NCBI GenBank assembly: GCA_964035545.1
Contig: OZ037765.1
Coordinates: 14,642,698-14,706,697 of the forward strand
DNA from: Bugula neritina
Taxonomy: Eukaryota; Animalia; Bryozoa
DNA length: 64,000 nucleotides
Direction of reading: 5' to 3'
Shown: one piece after another, positions 8,957 to 37,680 of the stretch
Layout: every line of letters starts with the position of its first letter
Numbering within the stretch: the first letter of the stretch is position 1
Notes under the pieces: generated by a model
The model's input: the letters and a program-made list of their open reading frames with translations, nothing else
The model's database searches: none
Told to the model about the DNA's origin: nothing
Made by a program: the position numbers and the translations under genes

Positions 8957-8977
8957 TTTGATTCATCAAAAGTAACA

Positions 8978-8989: not shown

Positions 8990-9434
8990 TGTTGTCAAAT
9001 TAGAATGAACGGCAGCTCCAAGCTGCCACCGTGACCACCTACCACCCCTGCGTCACACCAAGCGCCACCTCGACTTGCCCCACACAAGCCAACGCAGTTT
9101 GGCTCTCCCAACTGCCAAGCAGAATACTCTTACGACTACACTAGTAGCCCCCCTACCAGCAACACTTCGCTGGTAGGCAACTAAACTGAAAAACTATAGA
9201 TTAGATAGACTAAAGATAACTAGAGCACTAAATTACAGAAAAGAAACAACTACCTACTAATAGTAATGATTAAGTATAACGATACAACTATTCTACTAAG
9301 TGACAAAAACAGAGAAATAATCTTAAGCCAAACCACACGTCCTTTGCTGAATAATAACAACTTTCAAAAGGGCCGCTAGTAATCCAACATGGCCGCTCGC
9401 AAGTAGCGTGGTCGGTCCGAGAGGACAACTCACA
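8990..9434 (-). repeat. 5' LTR (445 bp)
   Basis: Direct repeat of 4283-4727. Confidence 0.96.
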
Positions 9435-9639
9435 ATAAATTAACGCAAGAGGTTTTTTTGTCCAATAGGAGTCCACCGCAACTTATTTGAATCAAGCAGT
9501 GCTTGATCCTACCGTACCGCAACACTGTACAGAAAGCTCAGACATTTGTAAAAATGGCTGATACTTGCTGCTACGACGTGCAGTACGGTAAACGTGAATA
9601 GGGGGTATGACTGTTTCATGGATTTGACTTAAACTTATT

Positions 9640-10740: not shown

Positions 10741-12122
10741 AGGGGTATCGGTTTAGTCGCCGGCAGTCCTACCCTCTTGTAGTACTGGTTACAAGGGGGT
10801 AGGGGGTACTGGGGATATACATCCATCAGCCACGACACTCGCAACTAGTAGAAAGCCTTTTTTCTAATACATCTAGAGCATGGGAAAGTATCAGTGCAAA
10901 TAAAAAAATGAATGAAACACGTATTATATAAAAAAAAACTATTAATAATAAAATGGTACAAAATTTGGAAAGATTCTGCCATGAGACCTAAAATATCAAA
11001 GACATTACATGTCAATACGGACACGGCAAATGTCTAACATGTAATTAAACGGTCTGGCAGTACACCACATAAAAATATATAAAAAAAAAATAAAAAAATA
11101 CATATCAAGGAAATATCATGGGTATTCGGAGAAAAAATAGTTTAGAGATAACTGGGCACCTGGAGTAACAAAGCCGGTCCCTAGGATCTGCGGGACCTGT
11201 TCGTCAGACAGGATAGGGAGTCTTCAAGTTGACCCAGTTCACTAGTGGTAGCCAACAGCTGGGGCGTAAGCCTACCAAATCCAACTTCTAACTTGTGGAT
11301 ACAATGCTCCAATTTGCGGATGGGATCGATTAAGGTCAGAACCGGGGAACTAGGCATTTTTAGATTGACCTAATTTCTCATGTGCTTCCTCTGCTTCTCA
11401 TCAGATCTAGAATCCCGTGAAGGGAAGAGGGACCTGAGAGTAAAAAATTTGATTGCCATGGTATCTGCATCCATTCGGCATAGTACCGCTGGGTGTTCCG
11501 GACGAAGCTGATCAGGAGATGCTGACTTTATGCCCTCTCCGTATAGGTGGGGTTTTGGAAGCAGCCCTTTTGTGATGACCTGAGGTAAAAAAAATCTGCT
11601 AGACAGGGCAGTCAGTTTATCTGGATCATTGGTCAGTGGCCGGATAACGGCGAAAATTTTCGGGAATGTAGGCTTGTCAATGTCAAAAAGGTGCTCGTTG
11701 TAACATCCTGTGGCCTGCTGATGACATGTTATGAAGGTTCTATAATAATTGTGCTCCCCACAAAGGTCAAAAGGTCGCAGTGAAGTGTTGGGGTACGTGG
11801 TGTTTTAGGTCTTGTGGAGTGCTGAAAATCCGCTGGCACAGCCTGCAGGATGTATTATCTGAATCTCCCCAAGCAGCTCTCATCTTGCGATCAGTTACTG
11901 CATAGATCTACCCAGTGCCATCATCGACGGAGAGGAGCGGGTAGTATTTCCTCTTAAGGGTGAAGGAGACTGGTACAAGAAAAAGAAGAGGATTGTCTCT
12001 TCAGCATGAGGTCGTCGTTTTAAACAATCTCGAGTGACGATGGAGTACCTGTGAGAGCAGGTCGAGTGAGATCTAAAAATGCAGAATCAGGGTTAGATCT
12101 ACATAGATCTTTGTACTCCAAT
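10741..12122 (-). mobile_element. Old Gypsy copy A, 3' part (LTR end plus decayed ORF3); continues at 28870
   Basis: 10800-10900 resembles 34680-34780 and the PPT region at 13014-13050. The minus strand at 11640-11763 translates to CGEHNYYRTFITCHQQATGCYNEHLFDIDKPTFPKIFAVIR, homologous to ORF3. Confidence 0.75.
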
Positions 12123-12708
12123 AGACGATGTATGTTTGGTACAATTAGTACCTTGTACTAAATCTAAAACACTCACCACTATAACTTATATAAACTTCTG
12201 CAAGTTCAAATGCAAAATGCATACTTCTAGAAAATAGCTGTGCAACTTTTATTACATGCATTATTTTATTTCATATCTTAACTTTATAAACCATGAGTTC
12301 ATTTTTCAAAATGTTTAAATTAAATGCTTAAAAAATGCATTTAAAAAATGTATTCCTGCAAAAATGCCCTGGAGCAGCTTGACCACAACCCCAGCTGTTC
12401 TGGCAAAACACATTTAATGGTTTTTTTATTGACATAGTGGTGAATGAGCTAGTTGTTTTTGGCAGTTGAATATAGCCACGTTGCAGGCAATTTTATACGA
12501 TTCTGATTGGCTGGACTCTACATGACCAGCTAATGATTGTATCTGATAGGCCTAATAATGCATTTGTTTTTGAAAATGTAGAGTTTTATATGAGTTATAG
12601 TGGTGATATTTTAGAGTTGGTACACGCCCCTTTTTGGTTGAGTTTTATAGTCTGATCATGCTGTAGTCATCGATACAACACTTGAGTGTATGGGGAAATT
12701 ATTAGTAT

Positions 12709-13013
12709 TGTTATAATTTCCAGATTTAGGGTTGATGTGCTATCCAGAGAGTCTATTTATTTACTATAGAACTGCACCAGGATAAGTCGAGTGAACGAGT
12801 ATATTTTACACACAATTATACATTACAAAAACGACACATTATTTCCAAACAAGTTACACATCTAATCTATTTCACACTCTAGCTTCGACTGCGTTAGCAG
12901 CGGGAAACTACAATTGCTGCTAACTATCAACTACGCTAATTGGCTATCCATTGTTCCGGGTCAATTACGCGACCCTACATGTTGTGCTGCTGGTAGTTCC
13001 ACGAACCACCACA
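12709..13013 (-). repeat. 3' LTR (305 bp)
   Basis: TG...CA direct repeat of 19910-20214. Confidence 0.96.
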
Positions 13014-13299
13014 CCGCCCCCACCAGCAGAAAGCCATCTTTCTGATATATATAAAAAAAACATTCAATAGTAATGGCATACATCAGTGGACAAAATAATA
13101 CATAATATACAGGAAGAGACATAATAATAGACAGAGTCATTATAACGATCCGTTGCATACAAATGGCCAGCTGTAGATAGACGAGGAATACTAGCTAGCT
13201 GTGGTATTAGACAAGGAATAACCTGTCTAGCAGTTAAGCATTTGCACGATCTTGGTTCCTCACAAGTTGTGAAGTTGCGGAGTATTCTGAGTAGCCTAA

Positions 13300-14087
13300 C
13301 TAGAGTCCTTGTTGGGCACGCCTGTGCTTGGCTTGGCATGTACGCAGTTTCCGTTTCATACGGCATACGGATCCCTTTAGCTGGAAGAGTCCTGTTGTAG
13401 TGTTAAGTAGATCTGGTGCCAGCTGGGTGAACTCTTCTTGTAATCGTAGGAGGCGTTCTTCTACTGTAGCCAGGCGTACTGGGTCTGGGGACGGTGTCCG
13501 TCTGTGGCGCAAGGGTGGACTGGGGGACCTGGTTCGTCTCTTCGCCGGTGTGGGGGATATCTCTCCTTCTTCTGGATATGTAATTTCTTCGGGGGTGTAT
13601 GTAATTTGAGGACGGTCAGACACCAACGGGGATTGCTGGCGGGCGTTGTCTAACACACGTTGGAACCCCGAGGACAGAACGGCTAACAACATGGCCTTCT
13701 TCACCAGAGGTCGTATAAGTGTGAGGAACTCCGGGTATAGCTTAGCGTCGACCACGTAGTTTTCTCCAGGGAAACAGCCCGCCGCTCGGTGTCTGGTGAC
13801 GGGGTAGGGATACACATCATTGTACCCGCAGGGGCAGAATGTTAGTAGGAGATGAGCATTGACGTGTAGTTTAAGGGAGCGGTGAGAGGCGCAATCTTCA
13901 CCACAGATCTGGCATCTCGTCCGTCCTCTGGACCCCCAGGCCGTTTCTATTTCTTCCTCTGTTTGTGGAGACACCCACCGCCAACGGCGGCGTAGTGGCT
14001 CAGGCCGGTCACCACTAGCATACTCCTCCGGATACGGAGCGGGAAGTGTTCTATCCCGTACCCTGGTTGTAGCGGGTCGAGTGTAAT
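13300..14087 (-). CDS. Gypsy ORF3: C2H2 plus C2HC zinc-finger, RSP-rich and coiled-coil protein (exon 2 of a predicted spliced mRNA; exon 1 = 19878-19836)
   Basis: ORF 13300-14121 has no N-terminal ATG. Contains CQICGEDCASHRSLKLHVNAH, FCPCG-x11-H-x4-C, RRTRSPSPPLRHRRTPSP and a C-terminal heptad region. Acceptor TTTTTCAG ends at 14088. Homologues in three other copies. Confidence 0.8.
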
Positions 14088-14401
14088 CTGAAAAAGTTTC
14101 AACAGTGTTAATACAGTACACTGCTGTGTTGTCAGCTTGAACAGCTTGGCAACTCCTAATTCAGTTACCTCGTAGAGATTAATGGTAGTGAATAGTCAGA
14201 TAGAACACGTATTGCAATGAGATTATAAAAATCTCTAAGTCAAACTGAGTTCTTACTACGGTATTTCACTAACCTATCTCCAACTCGATTGACTCAGTGA
14301 GTCAGAGCTGAGCGATGCAATCTAGTTTCGTATTAAGATATAGTTAACTCACCCCACGATCTGTTGTCGTAAGACATACTGAATGTGTGAAATGGTTTGA
14401 A

Positions 14402-17400
14402 CTACTGCTTAGAAACACGTCTACTCCTGACTGCATCAGCGTATGAAAAGATCGAGCAACGTGGTTGGGGTGCGTGATTAAGACTTTGTGCACCCGGCGG
14501 ATGAATTTTGTTTCTATTTCCGCCGATACAAAAGTTGATATTTCCGTGGTGTTGACAACTCCCACATTTGCTCGATTCTTTTCTCGTACGGTTTTCCCCT
14601 AGACTTTCATGTGTGCCGCTTTTAACGCAGTCACATACGAAGTCCTTCAAGTATGCGGGGGGTTGCCTCGTACGCTGTCCCCTTTCTAGGGGGGGTGACA
14701 CGCTTGCCGGTTCGTTAGTAGGGGCCTCTAATGGCGTCTCTACTTCACCGTTAGCGGTCACCTCTTCTTGTTCTCCGGATGGAGCCCCTCCCTCCGTGGG
14801 GGTTTGCACTTCCGGAACCGGCTCGGTTTCTGGAAGTGATGGAATTAGACTTGGTGGTGGCGGACACGCTTCTGTGGGTAGAAGCTGCCGCTCCTCTCTC
14901 ACCAAGTTTTCTTCCCGCGGTATGACCACTTCGTATTCAGGTCCATGCCGCCGTCGCCCGCGCGTTGTTGTCTGCCTCCTGGGCTCTAACAACGGGGGGG
15001 GGACTTCGCCCACTCCGCCGGGGCTAGCCCAATACGGTTTCAAGCGAGACTCATTCTGGATAGATACCTGTCCTGAGCGCTCAATCTTGTACGTATGATT
15101 GGGCATAGCCTCGACAACCACGTAGGGGCCTACGAACTTAGGCTTCAGCTTATCAGCCTGTCCGCGGCGCCTACGATAATTGACCATCCACACCTTATCT
15201 CCCTTTTGATAGAGGGGTGGTTCATCGGAATCTTCGTGCCGCACCTTCCACTGCTGTTGGCGCAGTATCTCGTGTACGGCCTTCATCCGCTCCACTAGTT
15301 CACTGGCATACTCGTGGACTGAGTTATCTTGCTCTGGAACGTGATAGGTGAGATGGTCGGGGACACGAGTCTCTCTCCCGAGCATCAAGAGGTTTGGGGT
15401 CTCACCAGTACTGGTGTGTGGGGTGCTACGGTATGCACGCATGACTTGCGGCAACACCGTATCCCATTCCTCTTGACCTCGTCCAAGGAGGAGACTCCGG
15501 AGTGCATCACCTAGCATCCGGTTGTTGCGCTCCACCACCCCGTTACCTTGAGGGTGGTAGGGGGTGGTCCTGCTCTGATTTACTCCCCAGAGGTGGCAAA
15601 GGTCGCTCATCAGTTGAGACTGGAATTGAGCGCCTTGATCAGAGTGTATCTGTTCGGGAAGCCCAAAATAACAGAATACATGTTGGTCTAGCGCCCTGGC
15701 CACTGTTGGGGCTGATGCATCTGGGATAGCCAGAGCATCCGCCCACCTAGTAAAGTGGTCGGTTAGTACTAGGATCCAATTATTGCCTCTGGGGGTCAGG
15801 GGCATGGGTCCGACCAGGTCTACAGCGACTACTTGCCAGGGCCTACCAGCATATAGCCTCCGCCGTCCTGCTTCACCAGGGGGGCGGCTATGCTTACTGG
15901 CCTGGCAGATCTCACACTGTTTGACTCTGAGCCGGACGTCACGCTCCATCTGCGGCCAATACCACCGGAGTCGTAATTTGGATATCACTCGCTTGACCCC
16001 TGCGTGGGCCTGCTTGTGAGTATCCCAAATCAACTCACGGCGGATGGCTGTGGGGCAGACTACCCTCTTCCTTTCCGGGTGTCTGCCGCTGGCAGCTAGA
16101 GAGATGGTTAGCAACCCATCCTGCCCGATCCGCAGCGAGTCCCAACGCTGACAGTATAGCCGGAACTCGGCGCATCCCTGTCGTATGCGTTCCTCGCTGG
16201 GTCGTCGCCCTTCCCTTTTGGCCCGGTATATGTCTGCCACGACTCCAGGCAGCTCTTCTTGGAGCTTCTTCAGCTCTCGAACATTACCGGCCAGTACAGG
16301 GTTGGCACGGAGGTTTTGTACATCCTCCGGGGACTCATCAACTCTTTGCCTGAGTTGACCTTGATCCCAGTCAAACGGTGCTCCGTGATGAGCCAGCGTC
16401 TCCAACTCGCATCGTGGGGGACCTCCATCCCTCCTCTCGATGTTGAGACACTGTTTGCAACCTCCGTCAGGTCGGCGACTCAACCCATCCGCATTGCTGT
16501 GTCTCTTGCCCGGTCGATGTTCGATCCGGTATGAGAATTCAGCTAGGATTTCGAGCCACCGGGCGACCTGACTAGAGGGCTCTGCTCTCCTGCACAACCA
16601 GATCAGCGAGGCATGATCCGTACGCAGCCGGAACTTCCTGCCATATAGGTATGGTCTGAAGTGCTTCACTGACTTGATTACTGCCAGCAGCTCCTTGCGG
16701 GTAGTGCAGTAATTTCGTTCAGCGGGAGAGAGAGACTTGCTGTAGTAGGCTACTACTACCTCTCGGCCTTCCTGCACCTGTGACAGCACAGCGCCAACAT
16801 TCTGGTCACTGGCGTCCGTGTCTAGGATGTACTCCAGAGTGGGGTATGGGTAGGCCAAGATGGGCGCCGTTAGGAGGCAGCCCTTGAGGCGGTCGAACGC
16901 TTCTTGTTCGACTGAAGTCCACTGCCACGTCACCCCCTTTGCGGTGAGCCGGTTTAGCGGCTGGGCTATGCCCGCAAAGTCTGGTATGTATTGCCTGTAA
17001 TACCCTACCAGCCCCAAGAAAGCCCGGAGTCCGGTCAAGTCTTGGGGGGTGACCCAGTCTTCTACTGCCCGTACCTTTTCGGGATCCGTTGCCACGCCGT
17101 TTCGACCGACAACGTGCCCCAGATACTTGACCTCCGGCTGCAATAGAGCGCACTTGGAAGGTTTGAGCTTAAGACCGGCACCTCGGAGTCTCTCGAAAAC
17201 CTCCTGCAAACGACTGACATGTGTCTTGAAGTCTGGAGAGATTACGATGACATCATCGAGGTAGACCAGCAGTGTCTTCCAATGGAGTCCGCTAAGGACT
17301 TGTTCCATCAGCCTCTGGAAGGTGGCTGGGGCGGAGGTTAACCCGAAGGGCAGCACCTTCCACTTCCACAAACCATCCCGTGTGATAAACGCCGCTTTCT

Positions 17401-18976
17401 CTTGGGCGTCGGGACTCAGAGGAACCTGCCAATAGCCGCTTAGCAAGTCTAACGTACTGAAGTACTTGCTGCCGGCTAGGGCGTCCAATGACTCGTCAAT
17501 ACGAGGTAGAGGGTAGGCGTCCTGTATGGTTACGCTATTGAGTTTGCGGTAGTCCACACAGAACCGCCAACTGCCGTCTTTCTTCCGGACCAGTACGACT
17601 GGCGAGCTCCACGCACTATGGGCGGGCTCTATCAGTCCCCGGTCCAGAAGATCCCGTACTTGTCGGCTAACCTCCTTCTCTTTCTCCGGCCCCAGCCTGC
17701 GTGTGGGCTGCCGGACAGGGACTGTCCCTGCAGTCAGCGGTATTTCGTGTCTGACAATTCCAGTCAGTCCCACGTCATGCTCTCCGCTGCTGAACACATC
17801 ACCGTAGTCGCGTAGTAACTTAGCCATAGCTTGGCGTTCTTTGTTACTCGCGCAGCCGCCACTGGCTGTTTCGTATAACTCCCGGAGATGTGTTGGGACT
17901 GCCCCCCGTCCCTGAATAGGGCACTGAGGGGGTGCCTCCGTCGCATCACCCAGCGACGGGCCTACGTCTCCCTCCTGAACAGAGTGAAAACGGCCCAGCA
18001 TCGACCCAGCCGGGAGCTTGATAGGCTCGGTAAAGGGGTTGACACACTGCACTAAGATCTCCCCTTGCTCAGTCAGCTGATTCAGACTGCTGGCAAGTTG
18101 GATCTTTTCGTGCCCGCCTTCAACCACCCCGAGTCCAGAGATCCGGCTACTATTCACCCTGCAGTGAATGGTAGCCCGGGAGCGGCCTGGTATGATACGG
18201 TTGCGTACCACTTGCACACCTCCCACTAAAGGGCGGCCGAACTTGTCGACGCAGGTGAGTTCCCGCCCGGACATCATCATTGCAGATCTGCTAAAATCTA
18301 TGTGACATCCGTGCCGTTTAAGGAACGGCATCCCGAGGATAGCATCCTCCTTGAGCTGACTGACGATGAACGTCTCTTGGATCGTTTGATCACGGACTCG
18401 TCCCGTCAGCTCAATTATACCATAGAAGGGAAGGCACGACCCGTCAGCGAGGGTGCCGTATTCCCCTTCATATGCTTCCATCTCGCCCCTGACCCTAGTA
18501 CTGAGGGTGTCGAAGAGCTGGCGGCTTAAGAGGTTTGTGGTACAGCCCGAATCAATGAGGAAAGTAACAGCTTTGCCTTCCAGTTTACCGGGCAAGAAAT
18601 AGCTGTTCCCATGGGGCTGCACCTGAACTCTCCCTTCAGGCCTTACTCTCGCAGGGAGTACCTCCCTCGCTTTGGGTCGCGAAGGAGGTCTCTTAGAGCG
18701 GTGGTAGGTAGGCCTCGGAGGTGCCGAGGCTAGATTCTCAGCTACCTTTGTGGGCTCCCATCCAGATTCTTGGACTTGTAGCCCTGTGAATCTGTTGTGA
18801 AGGGGCATAGAAAAGGCAGCTGCGGGGCGAAACCCCTTGCTGGTCCGTCGTGGCTGTTGCCACTGTTGGTTGCCAGTACGCGGTACCCGTCTGGGTGACC
18901 TGCGTTTCTTCTTCCCTGGAGGTTTCATCGTCGGCCCGCGGAAGGTGGGAACATCTGCGGGCCGCGGTAGTTTAAC
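14402..18976 (-). CDS. pol: Pol polyprotein (protease, RT, RNase H, integrase with GPY/F module)
   Basis: 1544-aa ORF: LIDSGC; LDLLSGYWQ, PFGL, YLDD; LDTDASD..ELLA..TDH..NADGLSR; HKQAH..CEIC; VDLVGP/HSDQG/VVER; FVGPY. Confidence 0.97.
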   Translation of the reverse strand, partial: VKLPRPADVPTFRGPTMKPPGKKKRRSPRRVPRTGNQQWQQPRRTSKGFRPAAAFSMPLHNRFTGLQVQESGWEPTKVAENLASAPPRPTYHRSKRPPSRPKAREVLPARVRPEGRVQVQPHGNSYFLPGKLEGKAVTFLIDSGCTTNLLSRQLFDTLSTRVRGEMEAYEGEYGTLADGSCLPFYGIIELTGRVRDQTIQETFIVSQLKEDAILGMPFLKRHGCHIDFSRSAMMMSGRELTCVDKFGRPLVGGVQVVRNRIIPGRSRATIHCRVNSSRISGLGVVEGGHEKIQLASSLNQLTEQGEILVQCVNPFTEPIKLPAGSMLGRFHSVQEGDVGPSLGDATEAPPQCPIQGRGAVPTHLRELYETASGGCASNKERQAMAKLLRDYGDVFSSGEHDVGLTGIVRHEIPLTAGTVPVRQPTRRLGPEKEKEVSRQVRDLLDRGLIEPAHSAWSSPVVLVRKKDGSWRFCVDYRKLNSVTIQDAYPLPRIDESLDALAGSKYFSTLDLLSGYWQVPLSPDAQEKAAFITRDGLWKWKVLPFGLTSAPATFQRLMEQVLSGLHWKTLLVYLDDVIVISPDFKTHVSRLQEVFERLRGAGLKLKPSKCALLQPEVKYLGHVVGRNGVATDPEKVRAVEDWVTPQDLTGLRAFLGLVGYYRQYIPDFAGIAQPLNRLTAKGVTWQWTSVEQEAFDRLKGCLLTAPILAYPYPTLEYILDTDASDQNVGAVLSQVQEGREVVVAYYSKSLSPAERNYCTTRKELLAVIKSVKHFRPYLYGRKFRLRTDHASLIWLCRRAEPSSQVARWLEILAEFSYRIEHRPGKRHSNADGLSRRPDGGCKQCLNIERRDGGPPRCELETLAHHGAPFDWDQGQLRQRVDESPEDVQNLRANPVLAGNVRELKKLQEELPGVVADIYRAKREGRRPSEERIRQGCAEFRLYCQRWDSLRIGQDGLLTISLAASGRHPERKRVVCPTAIRRELIWDTHKQAHAGVKRVISKLRLRWYWPQMERDVRLRVKQCEICQASKHSRPPGEAGRRRLYAGRPWQVVAVDLVGPMPLTPRGNNWILVLTDHFTRWADALAIPDASAPTVARALDQHVFCYFGLPEQIHSDQGAQFQSQLMSDLCHLWGVNQSRTTPYHPQGNGVVERNNRMLGDALRSLLLGRGQEEWDTVLPQVMRAYRSTPHTSTGETPNLLMLGRETRVPDHLTYHVPEQDNSVHEYASELVERMKAVHEILRQQQWKVRHEDSDEPPLYQKGDKVWMVNYRRRRGQADKLKPKFVGPYVVVEAMPNHTYKIERSGQVSIQNESRLKPYWASPGGVGEVPPPLLEPRRQTTTRGRRRHGPEYEVVIPREENLVREERQLLPTEACPPPPSLIPSLPETEPVPEVQTPTEGGAPSGEQEEVTANGEVETPLEAPTNEPASVSPPLERGQRTRQPPAYLKDFVCDCVKSGTHESLGENRTRKESSKCGSCQHHGNINFCIGGNRNKIHPPGAQSLNHAPQPRCSIFSYADAVRSRRVSKQ

Positions 18977-19878
18977 CCCTGATTTAGGAAGGGACAATAT
19001 CGGCGGAAATGTCCTTGATTTCCGCACTCCCAGCAAAAACTGACTGTTTCTCCCTGTGGCGGCGCCGATGGCCGCATGGGCTCAGGGGCGGTACTCACTG
19101 GGTTTTGTGGTGTCAGTGTTGCTATCAGCTTGGCTAGCATGTCTGTCAGTTGAGTGACTTTTGATGCCGTCGCCAACTGGGACACGGCAGCCGCGGCGGG
19201 GGTTTCCTCCCCTTGTCCCGCGGCCGTGTCTGCGCGGTCTATCTCCACTTGACGGGAGCTTCCGCGACTTTTATGCATTTGATTAGCTAGGAGGTAAGCT
19301 TCCCCCTCAGTCAGAGCATCTTCAACGGTGGTGACTCCCCTAGCTAGAAACTGGTGGTGGAGACCCAGATCGTCGACAGATGCTATGAAAGCGTCGAGGG
19401 TGTACCTCTCGCGGTTGACTGGGGGCAAGTCGCTGTACGCGATCTGTGCCAGCTTCATGACCGCGGCGGCATGCTCCCGCAGCGGGGTGCGGGAATCACG
19501 CCGCAACCTCTGCAATCGGGCCCTGGCATCTGTAGCAGAGAGGCCAAAGCGGGCCCGCAGAGAAGCAAAGATATTATCAATGTCTACACCCAGCCCATAG
19601 GGCTTGGCTTTGTCCATCAATGCCATTCTAAGCTTCAGCAAGGCCACCCTAGGGGGCCACTGAGCGACGTCCATTACGTCGCTAAACTCTTGGATAAATT
19701 GTTCCACCTCCTCTTCACCCGTGAAGGTGGGCGCCTTTAACCTGTAGCGGTCTTCAGCTAGTTCTCGCGGAACCCTTCGCTCTTCTACTACATGGTTAAC
19801 AGGCATTGTCTCTACAGCATTGTCTCTACGCTCACCTTCGATTGCCGGTGGTTGAGTTCCAGCATTTTCAGTCTCCAT
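18925..19878 (-). CDS. gag: Gag with CCHC zinc knuckle
   Basis: 317 aa; APTFTGEEEVEQF capsid-like motif; CWECGNQGHFRRYC. Confidence 0.94.
   Translation of the reverse strand: METENAGTQPPAIEGERRDNAVETMPVNHVVEERRVPRELAEDRYRLKAPTFTGEEEVEQFIQEFSDVMDVAQWPPRVALLKLRMALMDKAKPYGLGVDIDNIFASLRARFGLSATDARARLQRLRRDSRTPLREHAAAVMKLAQIAYSDLPPVNRERYTLDAFIASVDDLGLHHQFLARGVTTVEDALTEGEAYLLANQMHKSRGSSRQVEIDRADTAAGQGEETPAAAAVSQLATASKVTQLTDMLAKLIATLTPQNPVSTAPEPMRPSAPPQGETVSFCWECGNQGHFRRYCPFLNQGLNYRGPQMFPPSAGRR
18932..18976 (-). promoter_or_regulatory. Predicted -1 frameshift signal (G UUA AAC plus GC-rich stem-loop)
   Basis: GTTAAAC at 18976-18970 shifts the gag frame to the pol frame. Stem CGGCCCGC/GCGGGCCG at 18964-18957 and 18939-18932. 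Confidence 0.75.
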
Positions 19879-19890
19879 CTTGGATGCACT

Positions 19891-19908
19891 ATCCCACCGC
19901 TGCCACCA
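19891..19908 (-). promoter_or_regulatory. Primer-binding site, tRNA-Leu 3' end
   Basis: TGGTGGCAGCGGTGGGAT, 1 nt from the LTR, is complementary to ATCCCACCGCTGCCA-CCA of tRNA-Leu(AAG/TAG). Confidence 0.92.
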
Positions 19909-19909
19909 C

Positions 19910-20214
19910 TGTTATAATTTCCAGATTTAGGGTTGATGTGCTATCCAGAGAGTCTATTTATTTACTATAGAACTGCACCAGGATAAGTCGAGTGAACGAG
20001 TATATTTTACACACAATTATACATTACAAAAACGACACATTATTTCCAAACAAGTTACACATCTAATCTATTTCACACTCTAGCTTCGACTGCGTTAGCA
20101 GCGGGAAACTACAATTGCTGCTAACTATCAACTACGCTAATTGGCTATCCATTGTTCCGGGTCAATTACGCGACCCTACATGTTGTGCTGCTGGTAGTTC
20201 CACGAACCACCACA
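19910..20214 (-). repeat. 5' LTR (305 bp)
   Basis: Direct repeat of 12709-13013. Confidence 0.96.
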
Positions 20215-21618
20215 GTATTACGAAATCTGTTTTGGCTTACTTTGCTATGCCAGTTTTCTGACTTGGTTTGTAAGCAACTATGTAGGCAGTTATAACTTAG
20301 GATGATTTCATCAAAGGTAGACATTACTTAGGCCTTAGAACATCAAATCAACCAGTGCTGTTACTTGGTTGTATTGTAAAGCATTATCGAGAGCATAGCG
20401 CACTAGCACAGTCACTGAGCTGCAATGGCAGTGCATGCTACACCAAACTTATCAGTTCTATTATAATATCTTATGTAAGGCACGTAAAACACTAGGCTAG
20501 TCTCTGTTAGTATGTAGAGCAGTAGCACAGTTACAGCAGTCACACCACCCTTCTCTATCCTGTCTACCTAGCACTGAGGTTGCAATAATGATAATCATTT
20601 CATGGTTTAGTTTTAAATCCATGCATACTACTAAATACATTCTCATAGTCTGGTTATTTTGTGTGCTTCAGTTTACTTTGATGTACTTATTCAAAAAATT
20701 ATTTCACACGCTCATTACAAATGCATTAGCCTAGCTATAGCCATAAATTATTTGCTTGTGTACCCAATACTATTTTATTTTAAATTTGTAGAACAGCATT
20801 TTTTTACTCCGTCACATATTCATCTGCATTGAGTTTAAATGCACAGGTATTAGCAATAGATAATGTAGACATTTTGTATAAAAATGAGTATTAGCATGTA
20901 GTGCCTTGCATGTGGGTCTATATTGTTAGTTGGTATTATCACCATGGTACCATGTTGATAACCCTTTCTTGTATACGATTTACTTAGCTAAACAGTATGA
21001 TTATTCTACAAATGTAATGACATCAGCCATGGGACAATATAGTTTAGTTTCTTTTAACTGTGAAGTAATGTTTTATGCAATTTGCCACGTTTGTATAAGT
21101 GATATTAAAGTTGAACTTCTCAGTCTCAAGTCATTGCTGGATGAAACATCTGTACTTAGCTCTGAAGCTAATGCAATAACATCAACAACTTTACTAATGA
21201 GTTTCCAATACATTTTTTAGTCAGTTGGGTAAAATACAAAGGCTTTCTCCTAATAATTTGGAATGTTAGAATAAACGGTCATTAAACATTGGGCTTGAAT
21301 ATTTTTTCATATTGTGTGATGCAACATGATAGCTACAGAGAAAATGTCGATTCCATCAAAACGAAGGCATTATATTTCAACGCTGACTGCATACAATATT
21401 GGTACTAACAGAATATTATTTATGCATAAGTTAGCATTTTATAAAATGAGTATCAAGTCTGAGCTGCCATTTACTTTCACCCAAAATCCTTCTCAACAAT
21501 CATTAAGATAAGCAGATATGACAAAAGTGTAATAATATCAGACTTTTATTTATAAAGCATAGTGGTATAGCACATACGTATACAATAGCACATAAAGAAG
21601 AATATTATTATAAAAGTG

Positions 21619-22882
21619 CTACACTTCATTGGCTACCAAAGGTGGCTGCAGATTACAGAGAGCACAGCAGACTATCATTACTTTATCTAAAAGCGGTGTC
21701 AACAGTAAGCTTACACCCCCAGGACCATTTAAAATATTAAATTTCTTTACTCGTTTTATTGCTCTTTCAACGTGGATTCGAAGGTTAGCAATCAATTTAG
21801 TTTGCAGTAACTTCGCTCTAGTCATTTGAGAATGGCCTCTCTTCCCAGGTGGCATGGCCAACTTGGCTCCAGCTCCTATTAGCTCTTCTTCAATAATAAA
21901 GCCTTTATCTGCCATGACCACATCACCTGGGTTTATGAGACCCAAGAAGCCAGAATCATTAACTATGCACTTGTCTGAGGCCCTACCTCCCATTCCAGGT
22001 GAAAGAAAGCATATAGTGCCTCTGGGTGTGATTGCAATAAGGTATTTAATTGTATTTGATTTTTTATATTCACTCCACGTCAAGGCTTGTGCCAACTTCG
22101 ACTGTGGCTTGCATATAAATATTTCTGTGCAATCAATAATGCACCTAATGTTGGGATACTGACTTTGAAAATTGAGAGGAATGTTCAATTTCTCTCTAGG
22201 GGGAAAAATAATGAGATTTTTTAATTCTTTTGCTAGAATGGTTAATGTATCTTTGAAGATTTTGCTTGCTAGCATTCTAGAAATATAAAAAAGGTCAGCA
22301 AGCATTTGAAACTGCAGACCTTGACGCAGCTTCATCAAAGCCAACAAAAGCTCATCTTGTCTTGTTAACTTTTTTCTGAGAGTAAGACACCTCATCTTTG
22401 GGCATATAAATCTATATAAAAGAATAAAAAATAAATTGACAGCTGGAAATTATATCAGTGTATGTTCAACATATATTTAATTACTCAGTTTATATTCATG
22501 TAGCTTAATCTGTGTCTAATAATTATAAAAAGAGGAATAAAAACTTTTATAGCCTCAAATATTTGTGCTAACTATCATTCCTTTATAATATTTTATGTTT
22601 AAAATATTTCATAAGTTTTGCTATTTATTTTAAACACACAACAGTAACTTTAATGCCACTGTTGCCTGTTGAGCCTTGATGCATAAAATTTTCAATTTTT
22701 GAGATGGGTAAACATATTTTTAACATCTTCGATTTACAATATTTATATTTAATGATGATTTAATTCAATATATTATATTTTTCTTCATTTTATTTATTTT
22801 TAGTGCAGTTTAATGTATGAAACTATATAGTAGGGTGTGGCATTTTTTAATAAAAAAACATATATATATATGTATATATATA

Positions 22883-22977
<95 letters not shown>

Positions 22978-23690
22978 ATATATATATGTATACGCGTGCG
23001 TGTGTGTGGTGTGTGTGTTTTTAACAGTACGGTAATAAACTTTTACCTTGCTAAAGAAAAATATAGAGATCGTGTAGGTATTCCAGTGTAAAACTTGGTT
23101 CTTTCATCTGTTGTGGTAAACGTTTTGAAAACTTTAATTTTCCTAACACCTGCCTTTTGTTTAAACTTGGAAAGTCCTGAGCTTTTTCTTGTAACTTTTG
23201 GTCCAATATTTGAAAGCCTAGGACTCTTTTTTGCATTAGCTGGCAAAGTCTCATTTTGCTCAGGTACATCTAATGAAGTTTGCCTACAAGGATGGCTGTA
23301 AGATGAATTTTGTTGCTTTACATTTGTTGAATATATTTTCTGTTCTTTTCTTTTTCCAGCTGTTCTGTCAAAACCACTGTTTTCTGTGCCTCTTGAACTA
23401 TAGGTTTTGGTGCATTTGTATCCCAAGTGAAGGGTTGGGTTTGGATTTTGCTCAGTTGGCTGACCATCCTTAAAATGTAGGGAGCAAACTCTGGATTGTT
23501 GTTTTGGAGTCCATAAATTTCCTAATTCATCCTTCCGATTTATTAAAACACACCAATCGTGACGCTGTTGCTCACTTTTTCGTGGAAACGTATAAAGAGC
23601 GAAAGGATCCAATTGTCCAGGATTGCTCTTTCGAAACTTTTGAAGTTTATACTCTCCATTATGGCAGTTTTTAACTGCGCAGATTCTCAT
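21619..23690 (-). CDS. THAP-HTH-DDE transposase, 2 exons (23690-23047, 22411-21619), predicted 478 aa
   Basis: THAP: CAVKNC..FP..W..VCSLHF. DDE_Tnp_4-like: [20 protein letters not shown]. Donor AG|GTAAAA and acceptor TTTTATATAG| join in frame. Confidence 0.9.
22860..23018. repeat. (TA)n/(TG)n microsatellite in the transposase intron
   Basis: Long TA run flanked by TG runs. Confidence 0.95.
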
Positions 23691-25117
23691 GCCGATCTGT
23701 AAAATGCCAAGCAAAATATTCGGTATTGGATTAGATTCCTACCAGAACAAAACCTGATAACTAAATGTGTGTTACAAAAGATAGTGAAAGTTTTTTCCCC
23801 AACATAAATGCTTGCATGCTGTAAAGTTAAGGAATATACCACAGATATTTTGGAATATAAGTTGTCAACACAGTTTTGTGCTAAAGCCAGTAATTAATGT
23901 TGGTAACTTTGAGTAAGTAAAAGTTGAGGAAATTTGATATAGTAGCCATTGTTGACTGAAACCTTTACCTGTTTGCAAAAGGTTGTGCATTTAATAAGAA
24001 CAGCATTTGAAAAATTGCTCACAAGCATCTCAGCCCTTCACAGTAAACTGATTGAAATAAATCTATTTTTAGCCAGATCTAGTTGGAAATGCAAAAAGTG
24101 AAAGACTAACAAATTTTTATCTATTACTAAAATACATAGACTGCATATGCTCAATAAACTTCTGTGCTTTGCTACAGAACTATCCAAATGTGGACAGAAA
24201 TAACATGTTCAGCGACTGACTTTAGTTAATTATTGTTGAAATAGTTACTCACCTTTTGTGTAGCTACTATAATCCACTAAATCTCATTATGAGGAGATGA
24301 GTATGAGTACCAGCATGCCCGAGTACGGTACAAACTAATGACATAAACATAAGTTTCTAACAGAAGGTATTTGTATTATAATATAGCAAGCAAAACATAA
24401 GTGATATCCTTAGCAGATTTTACATTTACAACATGAATGTAAATGATTGTCAGACACCCACAGTATGATTCACTCATGCTGTCGCAACAACAAATTTCTC
24501 ATTAAAATTCCTAGTTCCGATTAGATAGACTACGTCAGCAAGCTCTGTGATGTGATTCATTTGCCTTCTGTTTACTGTTGGATTTAGGGTTATACCATTA
24601 TTGTTAGGGTTACTGTCCTTATTTCCCTACCTCTGCTGGCTATGTAGCTACCTTTGGGCTATGTAGTGAATGTATACCATAGTTTAATACTCATCAGCTG
24701 CAGTAGTTTTAGAGATACAGCAAAACGCAGCTCAGTTTGAAAACTCTTCACAACTTTATTAGAACTAGCTTTTTTTGCTTTCTTATAAAAACTGCCATTA
24801 TTTGTGACCTTTGCTTTATTCAATTTTATAGAGATCTGTATACATGAGCCAACAGGTTAGTTATATTTTATACATGTTTTACTCAAAATTAATAGTTATA
24901 ATGACACACCATACCATATTGCAACAAATACTGTTTCTCTAGTAAATAATTCTATTTTCTTTCTCTGTATACTGATGCCTGTTACACATTCTTAGGTAAC
25001 TTCATTTATGTACAAATATCACTTTTTATTATGATGATCAATTTAACTTATTTTGTGTTTTTACCAGCAAACATAAAAATAAACTTGTAATATCCTGGAC
25101 CAGCTACAGTTGTGAAC

Positions 25118-28867: not shown

Positions 28868-28869
28868 AT

Positions 28870-30262
28870 TCATGTGAAGCTTTAGTTTGAACAGTTTGAG
28901 CATCAGTGACTCTTTTATAAGGCACTCGCAAAACAGCTGACAATTGTGTACGCTGACTGAAAGCCATGGATTCTAGTTCTACATCTTAGAGATCGTCTGT
29001 CATTGCCATGCTTTCGTCACTATTAAGAGTTGCCAGAGTCCCCAGCAAATCTAACTCAACTAAATTAATTGAGTTAGACTGAGCTCACAGCAGACCCATT
29101 TTTATATCAGTAGGAATACTAGATCTGAGTGACTTACAATTACTTCTAAACTTAGTATTTGATTTCCTATTTGAATGTTTTGAGGTAAGGTGTTGTATTT
29201 CATGAAGTGCACGTCCAGCCTTGACTACTGTTGCATATGAAAAGGCTGGGCAGCGTGATTGTTGTAAATGACTCGGGCACCGTGCTGCTGATGGATTAAT
29301 TTTGCACACTGCTTCGCCTTCACAAAAGTCACTTTAGCTTTTGAGCACACTACTCCCACACTGCCCGTGACAACTCCCTGCGATGGCTCCTGCATGACTT
29401 ATTAACTTGTCGCTTTGCAGGCAGTCACACACAAAATCTTGCAAATATGGCGAGGAATACCGTGACCGCTGACTTCTTTCCAGAATCAGCGGCGATTCCG
29501 CCCTCAGACCTTCTGGCACCGGGGGAAGGAGTTGACTGGACGGGGAGCCTATTGTGACTCCTACCTCGTCGTTGGAATTGGGACCATCCTCCGAGATGGG
29601 GGTTCCCACCTGCCAAGCCGGTTTGGGCATAGGCGGTGGTAAGGCCGGGGTCGGCTTTGATGGCTTTAGAGGCTCTGGCCTTTCCTCTTGCAGAAGGGGT
29701 GGCTGCGCCTCCCTAGACTAGTCCTTGGTCTGCTGTACAAACACCTCGTACTCCGGCTCCTGTTGCACCCTGCCCCGCGTTGCTGTCTGTCTGCTGGGCT
29801 CAAGCAGCAAGGCTGCTTCTCCTACTGCATCAAAGTTAGCCCAATGCGACTTCAAGTGAGCCTCATTTTGGATAAACACCTGTCCAGAGCGCTCAATCCT
29901 GTACGTAAGATTGGGCAGAGCCTCGACTACTAAGTAGAGCCCCAATAAATTGGGCTGTAATTTATCTGATTGTCTGCGGCGCCTACGGTAGCTGGCCATC
30001 CAGACCCAATGCTCCACTTAAAAGATGGAGGGGGGCTCCTCAAAGTCTTCTCCTAGCACCTGCCATTGCTTCACATGAAGGATGTTGTGTGTGACCCTCA
30101 TACGCTCTACTAGCTTCCCCCAAATACTCATGTATTGAACTATCATGGTCGACAATGTAGTTGGTTAGGCGGTCTTGGACCAGGGTATCTCGACCAAGCA
30201 TCAAGAAGTTGGGAATCTCTAAAGTACTGGTATGAAGTGTACTGCGGTAAAATGGGGTGGTA
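28870..30262 (-). mobile_element. Old Gypsy copy A, integrase C-terminal part (continuation of 10741-12122)
   Basis: ORF fragments 29334-30273 resemble the pol C-terminus of 14402-19036 (YRSTLHTST..PNFLMLGR; YRIERSGQVFIQNE; YLQDFVCDC). Confidence 0.8.
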
Positions 30263-33133
30263 GAAAGAAACAACAGAAGGCTGGGCGACGCTCTCTGAAG
30301 CCTCCTTTTAGGACGAAGTTAGGAAGAGTGGGACGTTCTGTTGCTACAAATCATGCAGGCATATCAAAGTACACCTTACTCTAGCACGCAAAAGATCTCG
30401 AACCTGCTGATGTTAGGCCGCAACACTAGAGTTCCTGAGCAGCTCACTTACCACGTCCCAGCTCCTGAGTTCCCGATACATGAATACGTAGGGAAATTGG
30501 TGGAAACAATGAGAAAAGCTCATCAAGCCCTGTGGGAGAAGCAGTGGGAAGTGCGGACAGAAGACTTCAAAGAGCCCCCCTTATACTGAGAAGGGGACTG
30601 GGTGTAGATGGTTAGCTATCGTAGGCATTGCGGATAGTCGGCTAAACTGCAGCCCAAGTTCGTCGGTCTCTACTGTGTAGTAGAGGTTTTACCCAACTAT
30701 TCGTATTGTGTGGAGCAGCGCTTAAAACCCTGTTACGGTAATCCGGAAGCCGCAAGACAAGCACCATCATTGCTGGAACTAACCCTCTAACCCATATCTC
30801 GCGGAAGAAGGAATCAACCTAGAGACTGGGAAATATTCATTTGCAACCCCGAAAAAATTGGCGACAACCCACAACCACAGTCCCAGAATTCACCACCAAA
30901 TCCCCTCATTCCAGATCCACCCCATGACCGCCCGAACGGAAAACCTTCCGCCACCACCAAAAGACCCAGAAGAGACACTTCCAATAGAAGACAGCCAAGG
31001 TCAGCCAGACACTTCAGCACCCAACACCCTAGAACGGGGTAGAAGAAATAGAAGTTCCCGAAATATTTAGCTGATTACCACGTAGAATGTCTGACTGGCC
31101 CTCAACCATCGAGTTATTCACTCAATACAAGTACAAACTCGACTCACAGCACCAGGCCAGCTATAAAAAACCTAGAAGCTAAAAAGAAACCGTGCCGAAA
31201 TTCGGAGGTAAACCGATACCCGGAGTTGTCAAACTTAGTTGACCAGTTGACCGGTCATGTGACCGGCGACTCCGCGAGTTTTAAATTTAAAAATCAAGAC
31301 TCGACCATTTTGACCCCAACTCTAGAACAAGAAAGACGTATTTTGAAACCAAAATTTAAATTAAGAAGTAAGATGGAACAAACCACAGCGGAGCGTATCA
31401 GAACCCCTACACAATCAGGCATTTCAATCATGCTAGAACTTCTTTTCACGGAATGTAGTAGCTCATTCGATTCATTTTCACCTGATTACCAGTTGGAAAC
31501 TGAATTGTTCAATGACAGCAAATGCCGGGTAGATGTGGGGGAGCCCCAGTCCATGACTACCTGCTAGACCAGGTGGTCGGACGGGTGACTCTCCAACTAC
31601 CACCCGACTTACCACTCTGTTAGAGGGTTCCTTATAAAGAGATGCCAAATTTCGGCGTCGGTAGAAGCGGCCACTCACGGCCTCTACTCTCTATTACAGA
31701 AGCCATGGAGTGCGAAAATGTTGGGACTAGTCATACCGACTCCCCACCCCTAGTCACCCCTGACACGGCTGCTGCCATTCCAAAGAGGGCTCTCCTGCCT
31801 GATCCCTCAATTTCTGCCCACCCAGACGAGACTACCAATCCACTAGCCAATGACTCTCTTTTTGAAGAAGACCCGCAACTGAAAGAGGAGCCTGCATACT
31901 GACAACTGGCCCTTCCTCAGGTACTGACGAAGCGCCTACATTGGACCACGGCCAAGACAAGACAAAAGATCAAGATCGACTGTGGAGAGGCAGGCAACCG
32001 CAAGTGCTGCCAGTGTGGTAGAAAGTTTTCTACTACCCGGCGACTGCGAATGCACCCTTCTCAGCACTACACGAATGTCTTCTGCCCGTGTGGCAAATTT
32101 TCATTTCAAAGAGACTATGTGTTGCGTCACCAATGCATAGCCCGCTGCCACACGAGCCAGATATTTGTAGTAGATGCTGAGACCTTCTCCGAGTTTCAGG
32201 ATCTGGTCTTGCCTCATGTCTGCGACCCCCAAAACAGGCCACGCTCGCCCGAGGGTTTCCGGCGTGCCGGCGTGTCGGCCCACACAAGACAGCACAGACA
32301 AGGAGACGATACCAACAGCTCGACCAGCGGCCACCCAGCCTCTCAGGGTCATGCTGGCCTGGGTTGACGGCACTGAAACACGGACCCCACGGGTCGCCGG
32401 ACGCAAAAGAAGGCGACAGCAAGAACAAGAATCCAGGCCTCTGGCTTCAGCTCCAGCTCCGGCCCACACACCGGCGGACAGGGTGCGGTGCCAACATAAA
32501 GGGTAAATTATCCACCTCAGGCGCCAGTTACGGTGCATAAACGATGGATGAGTTACGCTCTGTCTGCCGCCGCTTAGACAACTTAGAGCGTTCCAGGAGT
32601 GGTCGCCGCAATTAATCTAGTGTAAAATATTGCTGACAATTTACTAGATCGTGCTTACTTTATTTCATATTTCTGTTTTTTTTGTATAGTTTTTTTACAT
32701 ATTTGTACCTATCTCACCAGCTCATAAGATGTTTTTTTATATTTTTTTATTTTTCTGATCGGAAAGGGGTGCTTTCCGATGAGGGTGAGTGCAATAGAAA
32801 ATAGAGATGTTATCTAGTTATATTTTTGTTTTGTGAGTTGTATCCCCCGTCACATTTTTTTTATATTAAACGATTGGCGAGTTATGTGAGCCGAAGCTCG
32901 ACTGAGATCGGACCCCGAAGGTACAATTTTGGAAGGGTCTGTACGATTTCGGGCAGACCCTTTCTGACTTTGGCCAGCGGAACTCCGAGTCTCGGCCGAC
33001 TTTTGAACGCTCAAAGTGGCGGAAAATTTCGCTAATATATAAGGAAGAGAATTTCCAGTGTAAAATCAGTCTTACACTGGAGCTCTACGAAGACACATCT
33101 GAAAATAATAAAGGCAATTATAATAATTCAACA
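30263..33133 (+). mobile_element. Old Gypsy copy B, 3' half in the opposite orientation (integrase C-terminus, ORF3, PPT, probable LTR 32790-33133)
   Basis: 30341-30589 resembles integrase (QIMQAYQSTPYSST..LMLGR). 32000-32230 resembles the ORF3 fingers (CCQCG..H..H, FCPCGKF..H..C). Purine tract before TG at 32790. Confidence 0.78.
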
Positions 33134-34479: not shown

Positions 34480-37400
34480 CTTAACTACTATCACCTAGAC
34501 TGCTTTGGGCACGAGAAGGCGTGGTTTATTTACAAGGGTTGATCTTGATTGGTTAAGATAAGGTTCCGGCGGTGTCACCATAGTGTGTCAGGCAATACCG
34601 CAAGAGACTGCAGCATGGCTAACGTAGGTGTCCATCCTTGAGACATTAGCTGCATCATAATATAATGTACATAATAGGTCGGGGGTACTGAGAGGTATAC
34701 TTCCCACAGCCACTACATCCCTTCTCCAGCAGAAAACCAACTTTCTGATACATTCCAAAACGCAGGGAAGTATCAGTAAACTCTTTAAAAAACTATAAAC
34801 AAGTATTATTATAAATCACTATGAAAACAAATAACATGATTATTTATAAAAAAAACTATTGCTATGCAATTATATAGACTAAGAGATGTTATGGTAGGAT
34901 GAAAGAATTAGTTAAGAATCACAAACACTTTGTTTTGTAACCACTACAATACATATCAGAGTGTCACAGTCTCAAAAAAGAAGCTGTCACAGCGGTTATG
35001 AGTTGCCCGTATGGGCAGCAAAAGCTCCTAGAGTTTGCTGAGTCTCCTTTTTAGGCAGGTCGCAGAATTTCAGCTGGTTCAGCCTGCTGGTGGTGGCCAA
35101 CAGTTTGGGTGCAAGCTGGCCAAACCCAGTTTGTAGTTTGTGGTTACCTTGCTCAGCTTTGTGGATGGGGTCATTGGGGGTCCGACCAAAAGACCTGGCA
35201 CTTCTTGGTCTGCCTTAATAGGCCTAGTGTCCCTTAGAGAAGAAATTTGCTGAGGAGGCGATCGTCCAGCTGGCACTGGGTTTGTTCCCACACTGCGGTG
35301 CGCCGCTGGGCAATGAGTACGAGGCTGACAAAAAGATGCTTACTGGATAATCGGTTCCGATTGATCTGGTGCTAGAATTGGTCCCTTAGTGATAGGCTGG
35401 GTAGATGTAAGTTCCTGGGACAAGGTAGCTAAGTTCCTTGGGTTGTCGATCAATGGCTTGATAATGCCGAAACACTTTGGGAACATAAGCTTGTCAACTT
35501 GGAAGATGTATCCCTCATAGCAGCCGGTGGCCCACTGGTGGCAAGTAAGAAAGTGCTCATAGTAATCGTGTACTCCGCACAGGCAAACAGTCACCATAAA
35601 GTGCCAGAGCAAGTGGCATTTCAGGTCTCTGGTAGAACTGAACGTCTTCTGGTATAACTAAAAAGACGTGTTGTTGATGTCTCCTCAGGCAGCCTGTATT
35701 TGGAAATCAGTCACTGGGTTCACTCAATGCCACTGTTCGTAAAGAGAGTCGGGTAGTTTTTCATCTCGAGGTAAAGGGAGAGGAGAGTGTGGCTGCTCCG
35801 GTACTAGGCTGTCATCCCAGATAATTTCAGGTGAAATGGAGGCACCCGCAGTAGCAGGTCGAGTGGTATCTAAAAGAGTAGAAACAGGGTTAGATCCCTG
35901 AGGATCCCAATACTCTAATTCATGTAAAACCCAACTTTATACAATCTGAGGATCACTAACTTTCTCACTACTATAACCATAACCATCTCTGACTTGCTAA
36001 AGCCAATATGTCATTTGTGTCACATTAAGAATAGCATCCCGAGGATAGCATCCTCTTTGAGCTGGCTGAGTTTGATCACAGACTCAGCCAGTCAGCTCAA
36101 TGATGCGGTAGGAGAAAATGCATGACCCCGTTCACCAACATGCCATGTACCCCTTGGGTACAGCTCCAGGCCAGCATTATCTCCAGTGCTCAGGGTGTCA
36201 AAGGGCAGGCAGCTTAAAAAGTTAGTAGTACACCCTGAATCTAACAAGAAAGTGACAGCTTTGCGGGCCACCTTGCTGGGTAAGAAATAGCTGCCGCCAT
36301 AGGGTTGTATTCATACCCTCAATTTTTGCAGGTGACACTTTTCTAGCTCCGAACTTGGGCAAGGCCTGCACTCGATGGCTGCGGGAAGGTCTTCGAGGTT
36401 GCAAAAACTTCCTGCCAGACTCTAGGTCCTGCCTCTCTCATCTCCAGACTCTGGTTCTCGCAGCCTGCCAAAGCAATTTTGAAGCGGCACAGTAAGGGTA
36501 GCAGGCTGGCCATATGGCTTGCCACTTGCTGACAACTCTCCTGCAGTTGGGTTTTTACTTCTGGCCGACGGTAGGCAGATGTACCAGCCGTGAAGATGTA
36601 ACTTTCTCCGCGTCAATGGGCACTCCTTGCGGAGGTGTCCGCGACTACCACACTCCCAACAGGTGGTAGTCCAAGCCCTCAGTGGCCTCACCGCTGGGGA
36701 CTGAGTGAGCACCTCTACATGTTTCTCCACCATATCAGCTACCTGGGCCACTTTGAAGACTGTTGGAGACTTGGAGGTGACGGCAGCCACTCCCAGGTTG
36801 TTTTCTCGGTTTTATTGGGAGTAGTTGCCAACTCCATTTTGACCTGACAGAAATTCACGCGGCTCTTGTGTAGCTAGACCACCAACAATTAAACTTTGCC
36901 CTCCTTAAGTGTGTCTTTGACCGTCTGGTCCTCCGTCGCCACAGGCTGGTGATGGAGCCCAGGTCGTTGAGCAACTGCACAAAGGCGTCGAAGGTATACT
37001 GCTCACGGTTGACCGTGCACAATCTGAACCAGCCTTTTAATTGTGGCGGCATGTTCTTGCAGTGAAGTGCGTGGGTCACACCTCAACCTTTGCAAGCGGA
37101 CTCGGCGTCTACAGCAGAAAGGCTGAATCGAGCCCTTAGTGCAGCAAGGATGCTGCTGACATTGGGTCCTAACCCATAGGGTTTGGCCCTATCTGTCAAT
37201 GTCGGCTGCAGCTGTAACAAGAACATATGTGGTAGCCACTGAGTGACAGCCACTGTGTCACTGACTTTCTGAATAAACTGTTTTACATCCTCATTGCCGG
37301 TGAAGACAGGGGCTTTCAGGCAGTATCTGTCACCAAATAACCCCTGTGAGCCTCCTCGCCCCACGGCACCGGGCTTTCAAGAATATTATAATTTGCGGGC

Positions 37401-37680
37401 TCACCTTCATCCTGCTGTTGAGGTTGTACAGGTCTTTCAACTACGAAGGGAACTTCGTCGTTAGGTTCCGCCATCATAATCCTTTTTATTGTCCGGATAG
37501 CAGTTGCATTGGCACACAAGTATCTCACGGCTGCCACCACTGTTGTAGTATTGTATTCTACAATTACCGGCACAAGGAAGGCAAGAATCTTACCCAATCA
37601 TGTTTTGTTGCCCTCAAAATGTTGTGGCACCTTGAAGAGCTACACAATACTCTGTCTCGGAAGATTGGTGCGGACTAGAA
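34480..37680 (-). mobile_element. Old Gypsy copy C, internally deleted (gag, protease and ORF3 kept; RT/RNase H/IN lost)
   Basis: PBS-like sequence at 37522-37539; gag fragments 36422-37597 (CWECGSRGHLRKEC); protease remnant 36030-36320 runs almost directly into the ORF3 homologue 35340-35612; LTR end and PPT near 34717. Confidence 0.8.

Follow-up and report, generated by a model that had tools for sequence, protein, structure and literature searches.

A conserved non-env zinc-finger gene, almost certainly spliced, in a Ty3/Gypsy retrotransposon of the bryozoan Bugula neritina

A third gene probably made by splicing a gag leader onto a downstream exon

A complete Ty3/Gypsy long terminal repeat (LTR) retrotransposon with open gag, pol, and third (ORF3) reading frames lies on the minus strand, from 20214 to 12709, of a 64,000-nucleotide (nt) stretch of contig OZ037765.1 from Bugula neritina (referred to here as the window). 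Comparison with relatives inside and outside the window indicates that ORF3 is a real, selected accessory gene that does not encode an envelope (Env) protein, is almost certainly spliced, and belongs to an unnamed zinc-finger family. An initial annotation of this DNA had proposed a non-env accessory gene made by splicing a gag leader, and this proposal is now upheld by a relative carrying the joined form (P0026), by conservation of the donor and the acceptor, and by an excess of synonymous variants in ORF3.

The predicted donor GAAG|GTGAGC was located at 19836/19835, 43 coding nt into gag, and the predicted acceptor TTTTCAG|AT at 14088/14087, both in phase 1 as had been claimed. Exon 1 contributes gag codons 1-14 plus one base (19836..19878, minus strand), ending at the donor, and exon 2 contributes 788 nt (13300..14087, minus strand; within an ORF of 13300-14160 stop to stop), which together give the expected in-frame product of 276 amino acids (aa). 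Apart from the donor at 19836, the minus strand of the 6.9-kilobase (kb) interior contains no AG|GTRAG site. ORF3 indeed has no N-terminal ATG: its first Met is at exon 2 codon 132, which falls after both zinc fingers, and the 43-nt gag leader is therefore needed.

The most direct support comes from P0026, an ORF3 homolog (54% identical) whose residues 1-14 are the same as residues 1-14 of the gag protein P0130 and are followed by the Asp that opens exon 2, a junction known at the residue level only. The longest contig of P0026 measures 5,320 nt, compared with an intron of 5.75 kb in the studied element, and database proteins neighbouring P0026 start at arbitrary GTG or ATG codons, which presumably reflects intron-blind gene calling. 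Considering both the contig shorter than the intron and gene callers blind to introns, the join is likely to lie within the P0026 contig itself, and P0026 is likely to represent either a cDNA or a spliced RNA that was retro-copied. Because the primer binding site (19891..19908, minus strand; presumably tRNA-Leu-like) is located 5' of the donor and the spliced RNA also keeps the purine-rich tract before the 3' LTR (13014..13030, minus strand), such RNA may be copied into the genome; this would be the likely origin of P0026 and may also seed host genes.

Splice signals are also conserved in other family members. Among 121 gag sequences, 57 of which have an N-terminus, donor-compatible residues ([GSRC][EKD]) occupy codons 15-16 in 55 of the 57, a compatibility at the protein level and not of the DNA itself, and Glu16 is kept in all 57; the leader is variable, at 10-17 residues. 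On the acceptor side, 21 of 72 ORF3 homologs extend to the acceptor, and 20 of them have [FL][SL] before it, as expected from a pyrimidine tract followed by AG, the remaining one being P0026. A decayed, internally deleted relative in the window (relative B, 34700..37550, minus strand; gag ATG at 37474), whose broken ORF3 is 32% identical, has the donor GAAG|GTGAGC at 37405 in phase 1 and the acceptor TTTTAG|AT at 35869 in frame, so that both sites are in phase. RNA run X1 contributed 24 matching contigs, one of which (219 nt) was found inside ORF3, and the donor had no coverage; the 15 of 56 joints listed include none between 14087 and 19836, and a further listing contained no joint. Comparative lines, rather than junction reads, strongly support splicing, and ORF3 is very probably made by joining the first 14 gag codons to exon 2.

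Domain structure of the ORF3 protein

The two fingers described in the initial annotation, C-x2-C-x12-H-x3-H (C2H2, 13852-13914, minus strand) and C-x-C-x12-H-x4-C (C2HC, 13774-13836, minus strand), are both present, within a conserved folded domain (13636..14004, minus strand) that also comprises a W-x4-T-x3-I helix and a VD-F element. Of the 41-48 aligned close homologs that cover a given finger ligand, 39-48 retain it, and this holds for all eight. In an alignment of 68 sequences reaching down to 17% identity, C58, C61, H74, H78, C84, C86, H99, and C104 are kept in 55-68 of the 68 rows, and W37, T42, I46, F83, G87, V112, and D113 are conserved as well. AlphaFold2 predicts a block at residues 31-150 with pLDDT of 92-98 (mean of 83 and pTM of 0.58 for the model; an earlier model, A1, was poor, with pLDDT of 66). 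A coiled coil had been proposed, and the model accordingly contains a single helix at residues 202-259, the best heptad register having 81% hydrophobic residues at a/d; this C-terminal coil (13309..13482, minus strand) ends in a basic stretch. The basic RSPSP/TPSP tract stands as a feature of this subfamily but not of the family, since, of 47 close homologs, 0-4 agree with it at its R/S positions; among 45 long-tailed homologs, a strongly basic patch (at least 5 K/R in 8 residues) was found in 29 and an RS-type motif in 10.

The first finger has the Kruppel-type pattern and is the only one resembling solved C2H2 fingers, whereas the second follows C-x-C...H...C and the link between them consists of five hydrophobic residues instead of TGEKP. 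No Pfam family matched ORF3 above the cut-off, zf-C2H2_4 being detected in 7 of 68 members, and neither PDB nor BFVD yielded a hit at E<=0.001 in Foldseek searches with both models. A wide structural search, in which the zinc domain was barely probed, returned coiled coils only, and the clusters with which the ESM Atlas groups the domain, at 0.95-0.96, have 57-104 members and no name. Judged from its sequence, the ORF3 domain is a conserved, unnamed C2H2+C2HC zinc-finger family.

Homologs, selection, and linkage to Gypsy elements

We identified 72 ORF3 homologs (44-98% identity), together with representatives of 122 clusters at 50%. ORF3 is under purifying selection and does not evolve neutrally: 12 of the 16 variants listed at a share of at least 10% are synonymous, versus 5.0 expected when the observed transition share is used (P about 4e-4). 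For pol, 17 of 28 variants are synonymous, among the 40 of 434 variants listed.

Linkage to Gypsy elements extends across the diversity of the domain, including the studied element, relative B, two further relatives in the window (C and D/E, described below), and P0346, in which RNaseH, integrase, a long linker, and the ORF3 domain share a single frame (domain match E 2e-18 by hidden Markov model, with a database size of 1e9 and the two nearest rows left out). In an unrooted tree of 70 domains based on few columns (8 rows were dropped for lacking the pattern and 3 as duplicates), element-borne members lie on both sides of the midpoint. The named homologs come solely from two bryozoans, B. neritina and Watersipora subatra. 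Annotated proteins of these species contain the domain (P0225, P0341, P0272, P0343, and P0347), some in two copies, and it is possible that they represent host co-option or mis-annotated elements. Scans of metagenomes and viruses for homolog DNA found no locus. In a close relative, P0079, gag is fused in frame to the RT-RNaseH region (RT, reverse transcriptase) by an internal deletion.

Comparison with known systems

CERV of Cer1, a Ty3/Gypsy element of Caenorhabditis elegans, is a spliced nuclear protein that shares gag sequence, occupies the env slot, and is needed for export of unspliced RNA (PMC10309623). As with ORF3, it is encoded by a non-env ORF that lies after pol and before the 3' LTR and translated from a spliced mRNA with the gag N-terminus, and it combines a Cys-rich finger, a helical oligomerisation part, and a basic signal (PMC10309623, PMC3315495); its last exon (exon 5) can share the polyprotein frame, like P0346 (PMC10309623). 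However, CERV has 517 aa, 5 exons, and H, M (with a C4-type loop), and G-protein-like domains (PMC10309623), whereas the ORF3 product has 276 aa, 2 exons, C2H2 and C2HC fingers, and a C-terminal coil. The two are set apart by description, and the H-M-G build is not found in our model, which consists of one zinc domain of ~120 residues and one long helix. The Cer1 paper reports having found no CERV homologs beyond nematodes (PMC10309623). The suggestion that this is a 'complex' retrotransposon holds insofar as an almost certainly spliced non-env gene is present, but it had missed the CERV precedent; the accompanying idea of a nuclear regulator that binds nucleic acid is plausible.

Other systems share some of these features. 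Errantivirus env is produced by subgenomic splicing from a gag-proximal donor, and HIV Rev and HERV-K Rec are not known to contain zinc fingers. Like ORF3, errantivirus env is a third ORF after pol in Ty3/Gypsy elements (PMC13524379), but in ORF3 hydropathy shows neither a signal peptide nor a transmembrane anchor, and Pfam gave no match to an env family. Pfam and viral fold searches also returned no match to F- or gB-type fusion proteins, although more distant homology to them may exist. LTR elements of bdelloid rotifers carry family-specific non-env ORF3s, typically from spliced messages, although these encode GDSL, DEDDy, coiled-coil, or transmembrane proteins (PMC5408684). HIV Rev and HERV-K Rec, which regulate the export of unspliced RNA, are small, basic, oligomeric, and made by splicing, but belong to vertebrate retroviruses (PMC10309623, PMC3315495, PMC13269885). 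The sORF1/sORF2 genes of the Drosophila MDG1 group are selected non-env accessory genes of Ty3/Gypsy, but they are located upstream of gag, show no splicing, and are fusogen-like (PMC11952523).

Possible functions of ORF3

Since production of gag-pol RNA requires skipping of a consensus donor and the layout resembles that of Cer1 (spliced, sharing the gag N-terminus, in the env slot, with a Cys finger and oligomerising helices), we tentatively favour a CERV/Rev-like function, in which the ORF3 protein binds the unspliced RNA of the element in the nucleus and gets it exported. The LTR transcript would be spliced by default at its sole consensus donor, making the 276-aa protein the first product. 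The basic tail would then bring this protein to the nucleus and the coiled coil would oligomerise it, while the fingers would bind intron-containing RNA or block its splicing, allowing the full-length gag-pol/genomic RNA to leave the nucleus.

Several observations weigh against such a function. The element contains no RNA structure that stands out (the spacer fold has z of -2.3, and its hairpin is outside the top 12 of 477 element windows), and Rfam gave no match. Some retroviruses export unspliced RNA via RNA structure with no protein of their own (PMC10309623), so an element does not necessarily require such a factor. Moreover, CERV is described as having other domains than ORF3, the first finger finds its best profile and fold look-alikes among DNA-binding Kruppel fingers (SALL3, E 1e-5; HIC2, E 2e-4; Foldseek E of 1 or worse), and in many relatives a Met lies in frame close to the acceptor, and these may not need the leader. 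Hairpins were observed at a similar place in the spacer or linker of the studied element (14275-14320, ordinary) and of the decayed relative E (29038-29085, minus strand, strong). The latter is the strongest of 78 windows (z of -6.0) and offers a weak lead as an element of the Rev-response type.

A real possibility, which we rate a little below RNA export, is that ORF3 encodes a dimeric DNA-binding regulator that attaches to the LTR or to DNA of the interior and switches on transcription or protects the element from silencing by chromatin, comparable to Tas-, Tax-, or VANC-like regulators. The match of the first finger to DNA-binding C2H2 fingers, its basic recognition helix (R/K at 69 and 72), the combination of fingers with a basic coiled coil (a common transcription-factor build), and the annotated bryozoan genes with tandem copies of the domain would fit this function. 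However, the match covers only ~22 residues, the hydrophobic link departs from that of Kruppel arrays, and in the LTR, repeats, long palindromes, and motifs in common with the spacer or 3' untranslated region do not exceed chance (98-186 of 200 shuffles were as good).

It is unlikely, though not negligibly so, that the protein is instead a protein-binding accessory, such as one that tethers integration to chromatin, is part of the particle, or inhibits a host piRNA or silencing protein. Double fingers that pack together are often protein-binding, and chromodomains occupy the C-terminal integrase position in other Gypsy elements. In P0346 the domain is the C-terminal part of the frame that holds integrase, that is, in the chromodomain position, which counts in favour of this function; yet in the studied element it is a separate gene in a frame other than that of pol, and in P0346 a linker of ~500 residues separates it from integrase.

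Far less probable is a coincidental splice, with P0026 arising by DNA deletion and ORF3 made otherwise or being a passenger. In-frame internal deletions do occur in the family (P0079 and relative B), and the junction of P0026 is seen only in residues, but it coincides with both predicted sites, which a chance deletion is unlikely to hit; in addition, diverged lineages keep both splice signals, purifying selection acts on ORF3, and no usable ATG precedes codon 132. An envelope remnant or small fusogen is the least credible, for although the env-like position and splicing and the long heptad helix recall one, the N-terminus is a polar leader unlike a signal peptide, hydropathy (the measure on which the earlier statement of no obvious signal peptide or transmembrane segment is sustained) peaks at 1.51 over 19 residues and exceeds 2.0 in just 1 of 67 homologs, the eight zinc ligands are conserved, and searches found no env family in Pfam for ORF3.

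Novelty and implications

This kind of gene is already known from Cer1, while the build of C2H2 and C2HC fingers with a coiled coil was not found in print. In the literature searched, neither the ORF3 domain nor a bryozoan Gypsy element with a zinc-finger ORF3 is described, although such elements may be present in supplements, Repbase, Dfam, and subscription papers. The word 'zinc' occurs 0 times in surveys of mollusc, annelid, and rotifer LTR elements (PMC6238403, PMC8556966, PMC8220671, and the main text of PMC5408684), and 'zinc finger' 0 times in an errantivirus survey (PMC13524379).

It is understood for few LTR retrotransposons how genomic RNA that contains an intron is exported and how the element controls its expression, and CERV is the sole element-encoded Ty3/Gypsy export factor found in the literature searched. 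If the export function is true, ORF3 would be a second, differently built spliced regulator, implying that the strategy of complex retroviruses had more than one origin among the Gypsy elements of invertebrates. The domain itself is small, predicted to be well folded, unnamed, and represented by a deep alignment. A broader scenario, which we consider rather doubtful, is that an old and diverse set of Gypsy elements in invertebrates counts as 'complex' retroelements, each having an independently evolved, undescribed kind of Rev/Tat-like zinc-finger regulator, ranging from integrase-fused to strictly spliced and co-opted as bryozoan host genes.

Decayed relatives and the intron spacer

Besides relative B, the window contains relative C (30251..32800, plus strand), with integrase, a linker with an RVPYK motif, an in-frame acceptor-like TTACAG|AA at 31700, and a broken ORF3, and relative D (10850..12119, minus strand), with the acceptor TTTTAG|AT at 12072 and a broken ORF3. 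D is apparently the 3' part of an element whose integrase end and linker are E (28871-30249), the two having been split by a DNA transposon (12120-28870).

The RVPYK linker motif is common to C, E, P0346, and four others. RVPYK-type motifs were observed 5' of the acceptor in distant lineages, at 28928 (minus strand) and 31624 (plus strand) and in P0246, P0248, P0252, and P0346; those of C and the database proteins are in the ORF3 frame, and that of E is in the pol frame. RVPYK lineages may have a longer form of ORF3. In the studied element, a non-coding spacer (14088..14401, minus strand) forms the 3' end of the intron with the acceptor TTTTCAG; it is likely a decayed coding linker and looks like a remnant of the RVPYK linker. 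Sharing of this motif suggests a series from a pol-fused domain to a separate spliced gene.

Structure and genomic surroundings of the element

The element has the LTRs, primer binding site, purine tract, target duplication, and order of protease (PR), RT, RNaseH, and integrase (IN) characteristic of Ty3/Gypsy, and its RT is closest to that of Ty3 (best PDB match Ty3 RT, E 1e-98, versus 1e-34 to 1e-40 for retroviruses). The 5' LTR (19910..20214, minus strand; 305 nt, TG...CA) is 100% identical by blastn to the 3' LTR (12709..13013, minus strand). Between them, gag (18925..19878, minus strand; 317 aa) has one CCHC knuckle, recognised by eye, and pol (PR-RT-RNaseH-IN; 14402..19081, minus strand; 1559 codons stop to stop) is in the -1 frame relative to gag. 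A 4-nt target-site duplication, ATAC, flanks the element (20215..20218 and 12705-12708, minus strand), and an empty site with a single ATAC survives near 28280 in a sister repeat of the window. The identical LTRs, the duplication, and the empty site together indicate that the insertion is recent. In sequencing run X2, 6,254 contigs match the element with varied identities, indicating a multi-copy family.

The element is inserted in an inverted repeat of a 16.7-kb DNA transposon (12120-28870), which we take to be ISL2EU/Harbinger-like and which has ~1.08-kb terminal inverted repeats, AT flanks at both ends, and DDE_Tnp_4, THAP, and YqaJ genes; this transposon splits the older relative D/E. A second LTR element at 4270-9440 (minus strand) has open gag (8000-8962) and pol (4857-8156) frames, the latter a short RT-IN with DUF7047, and no third ORF was seen in it. 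A decayed Gypsy element of a different lineage (~29% RT identity) occupies 1-3400 (minus strand), and a 1030-codon APE-RT frame of a long interspersed nuclear element (40298-43390, minus strand) lies beside a long satellite with a 10-nt period (43400-64000).

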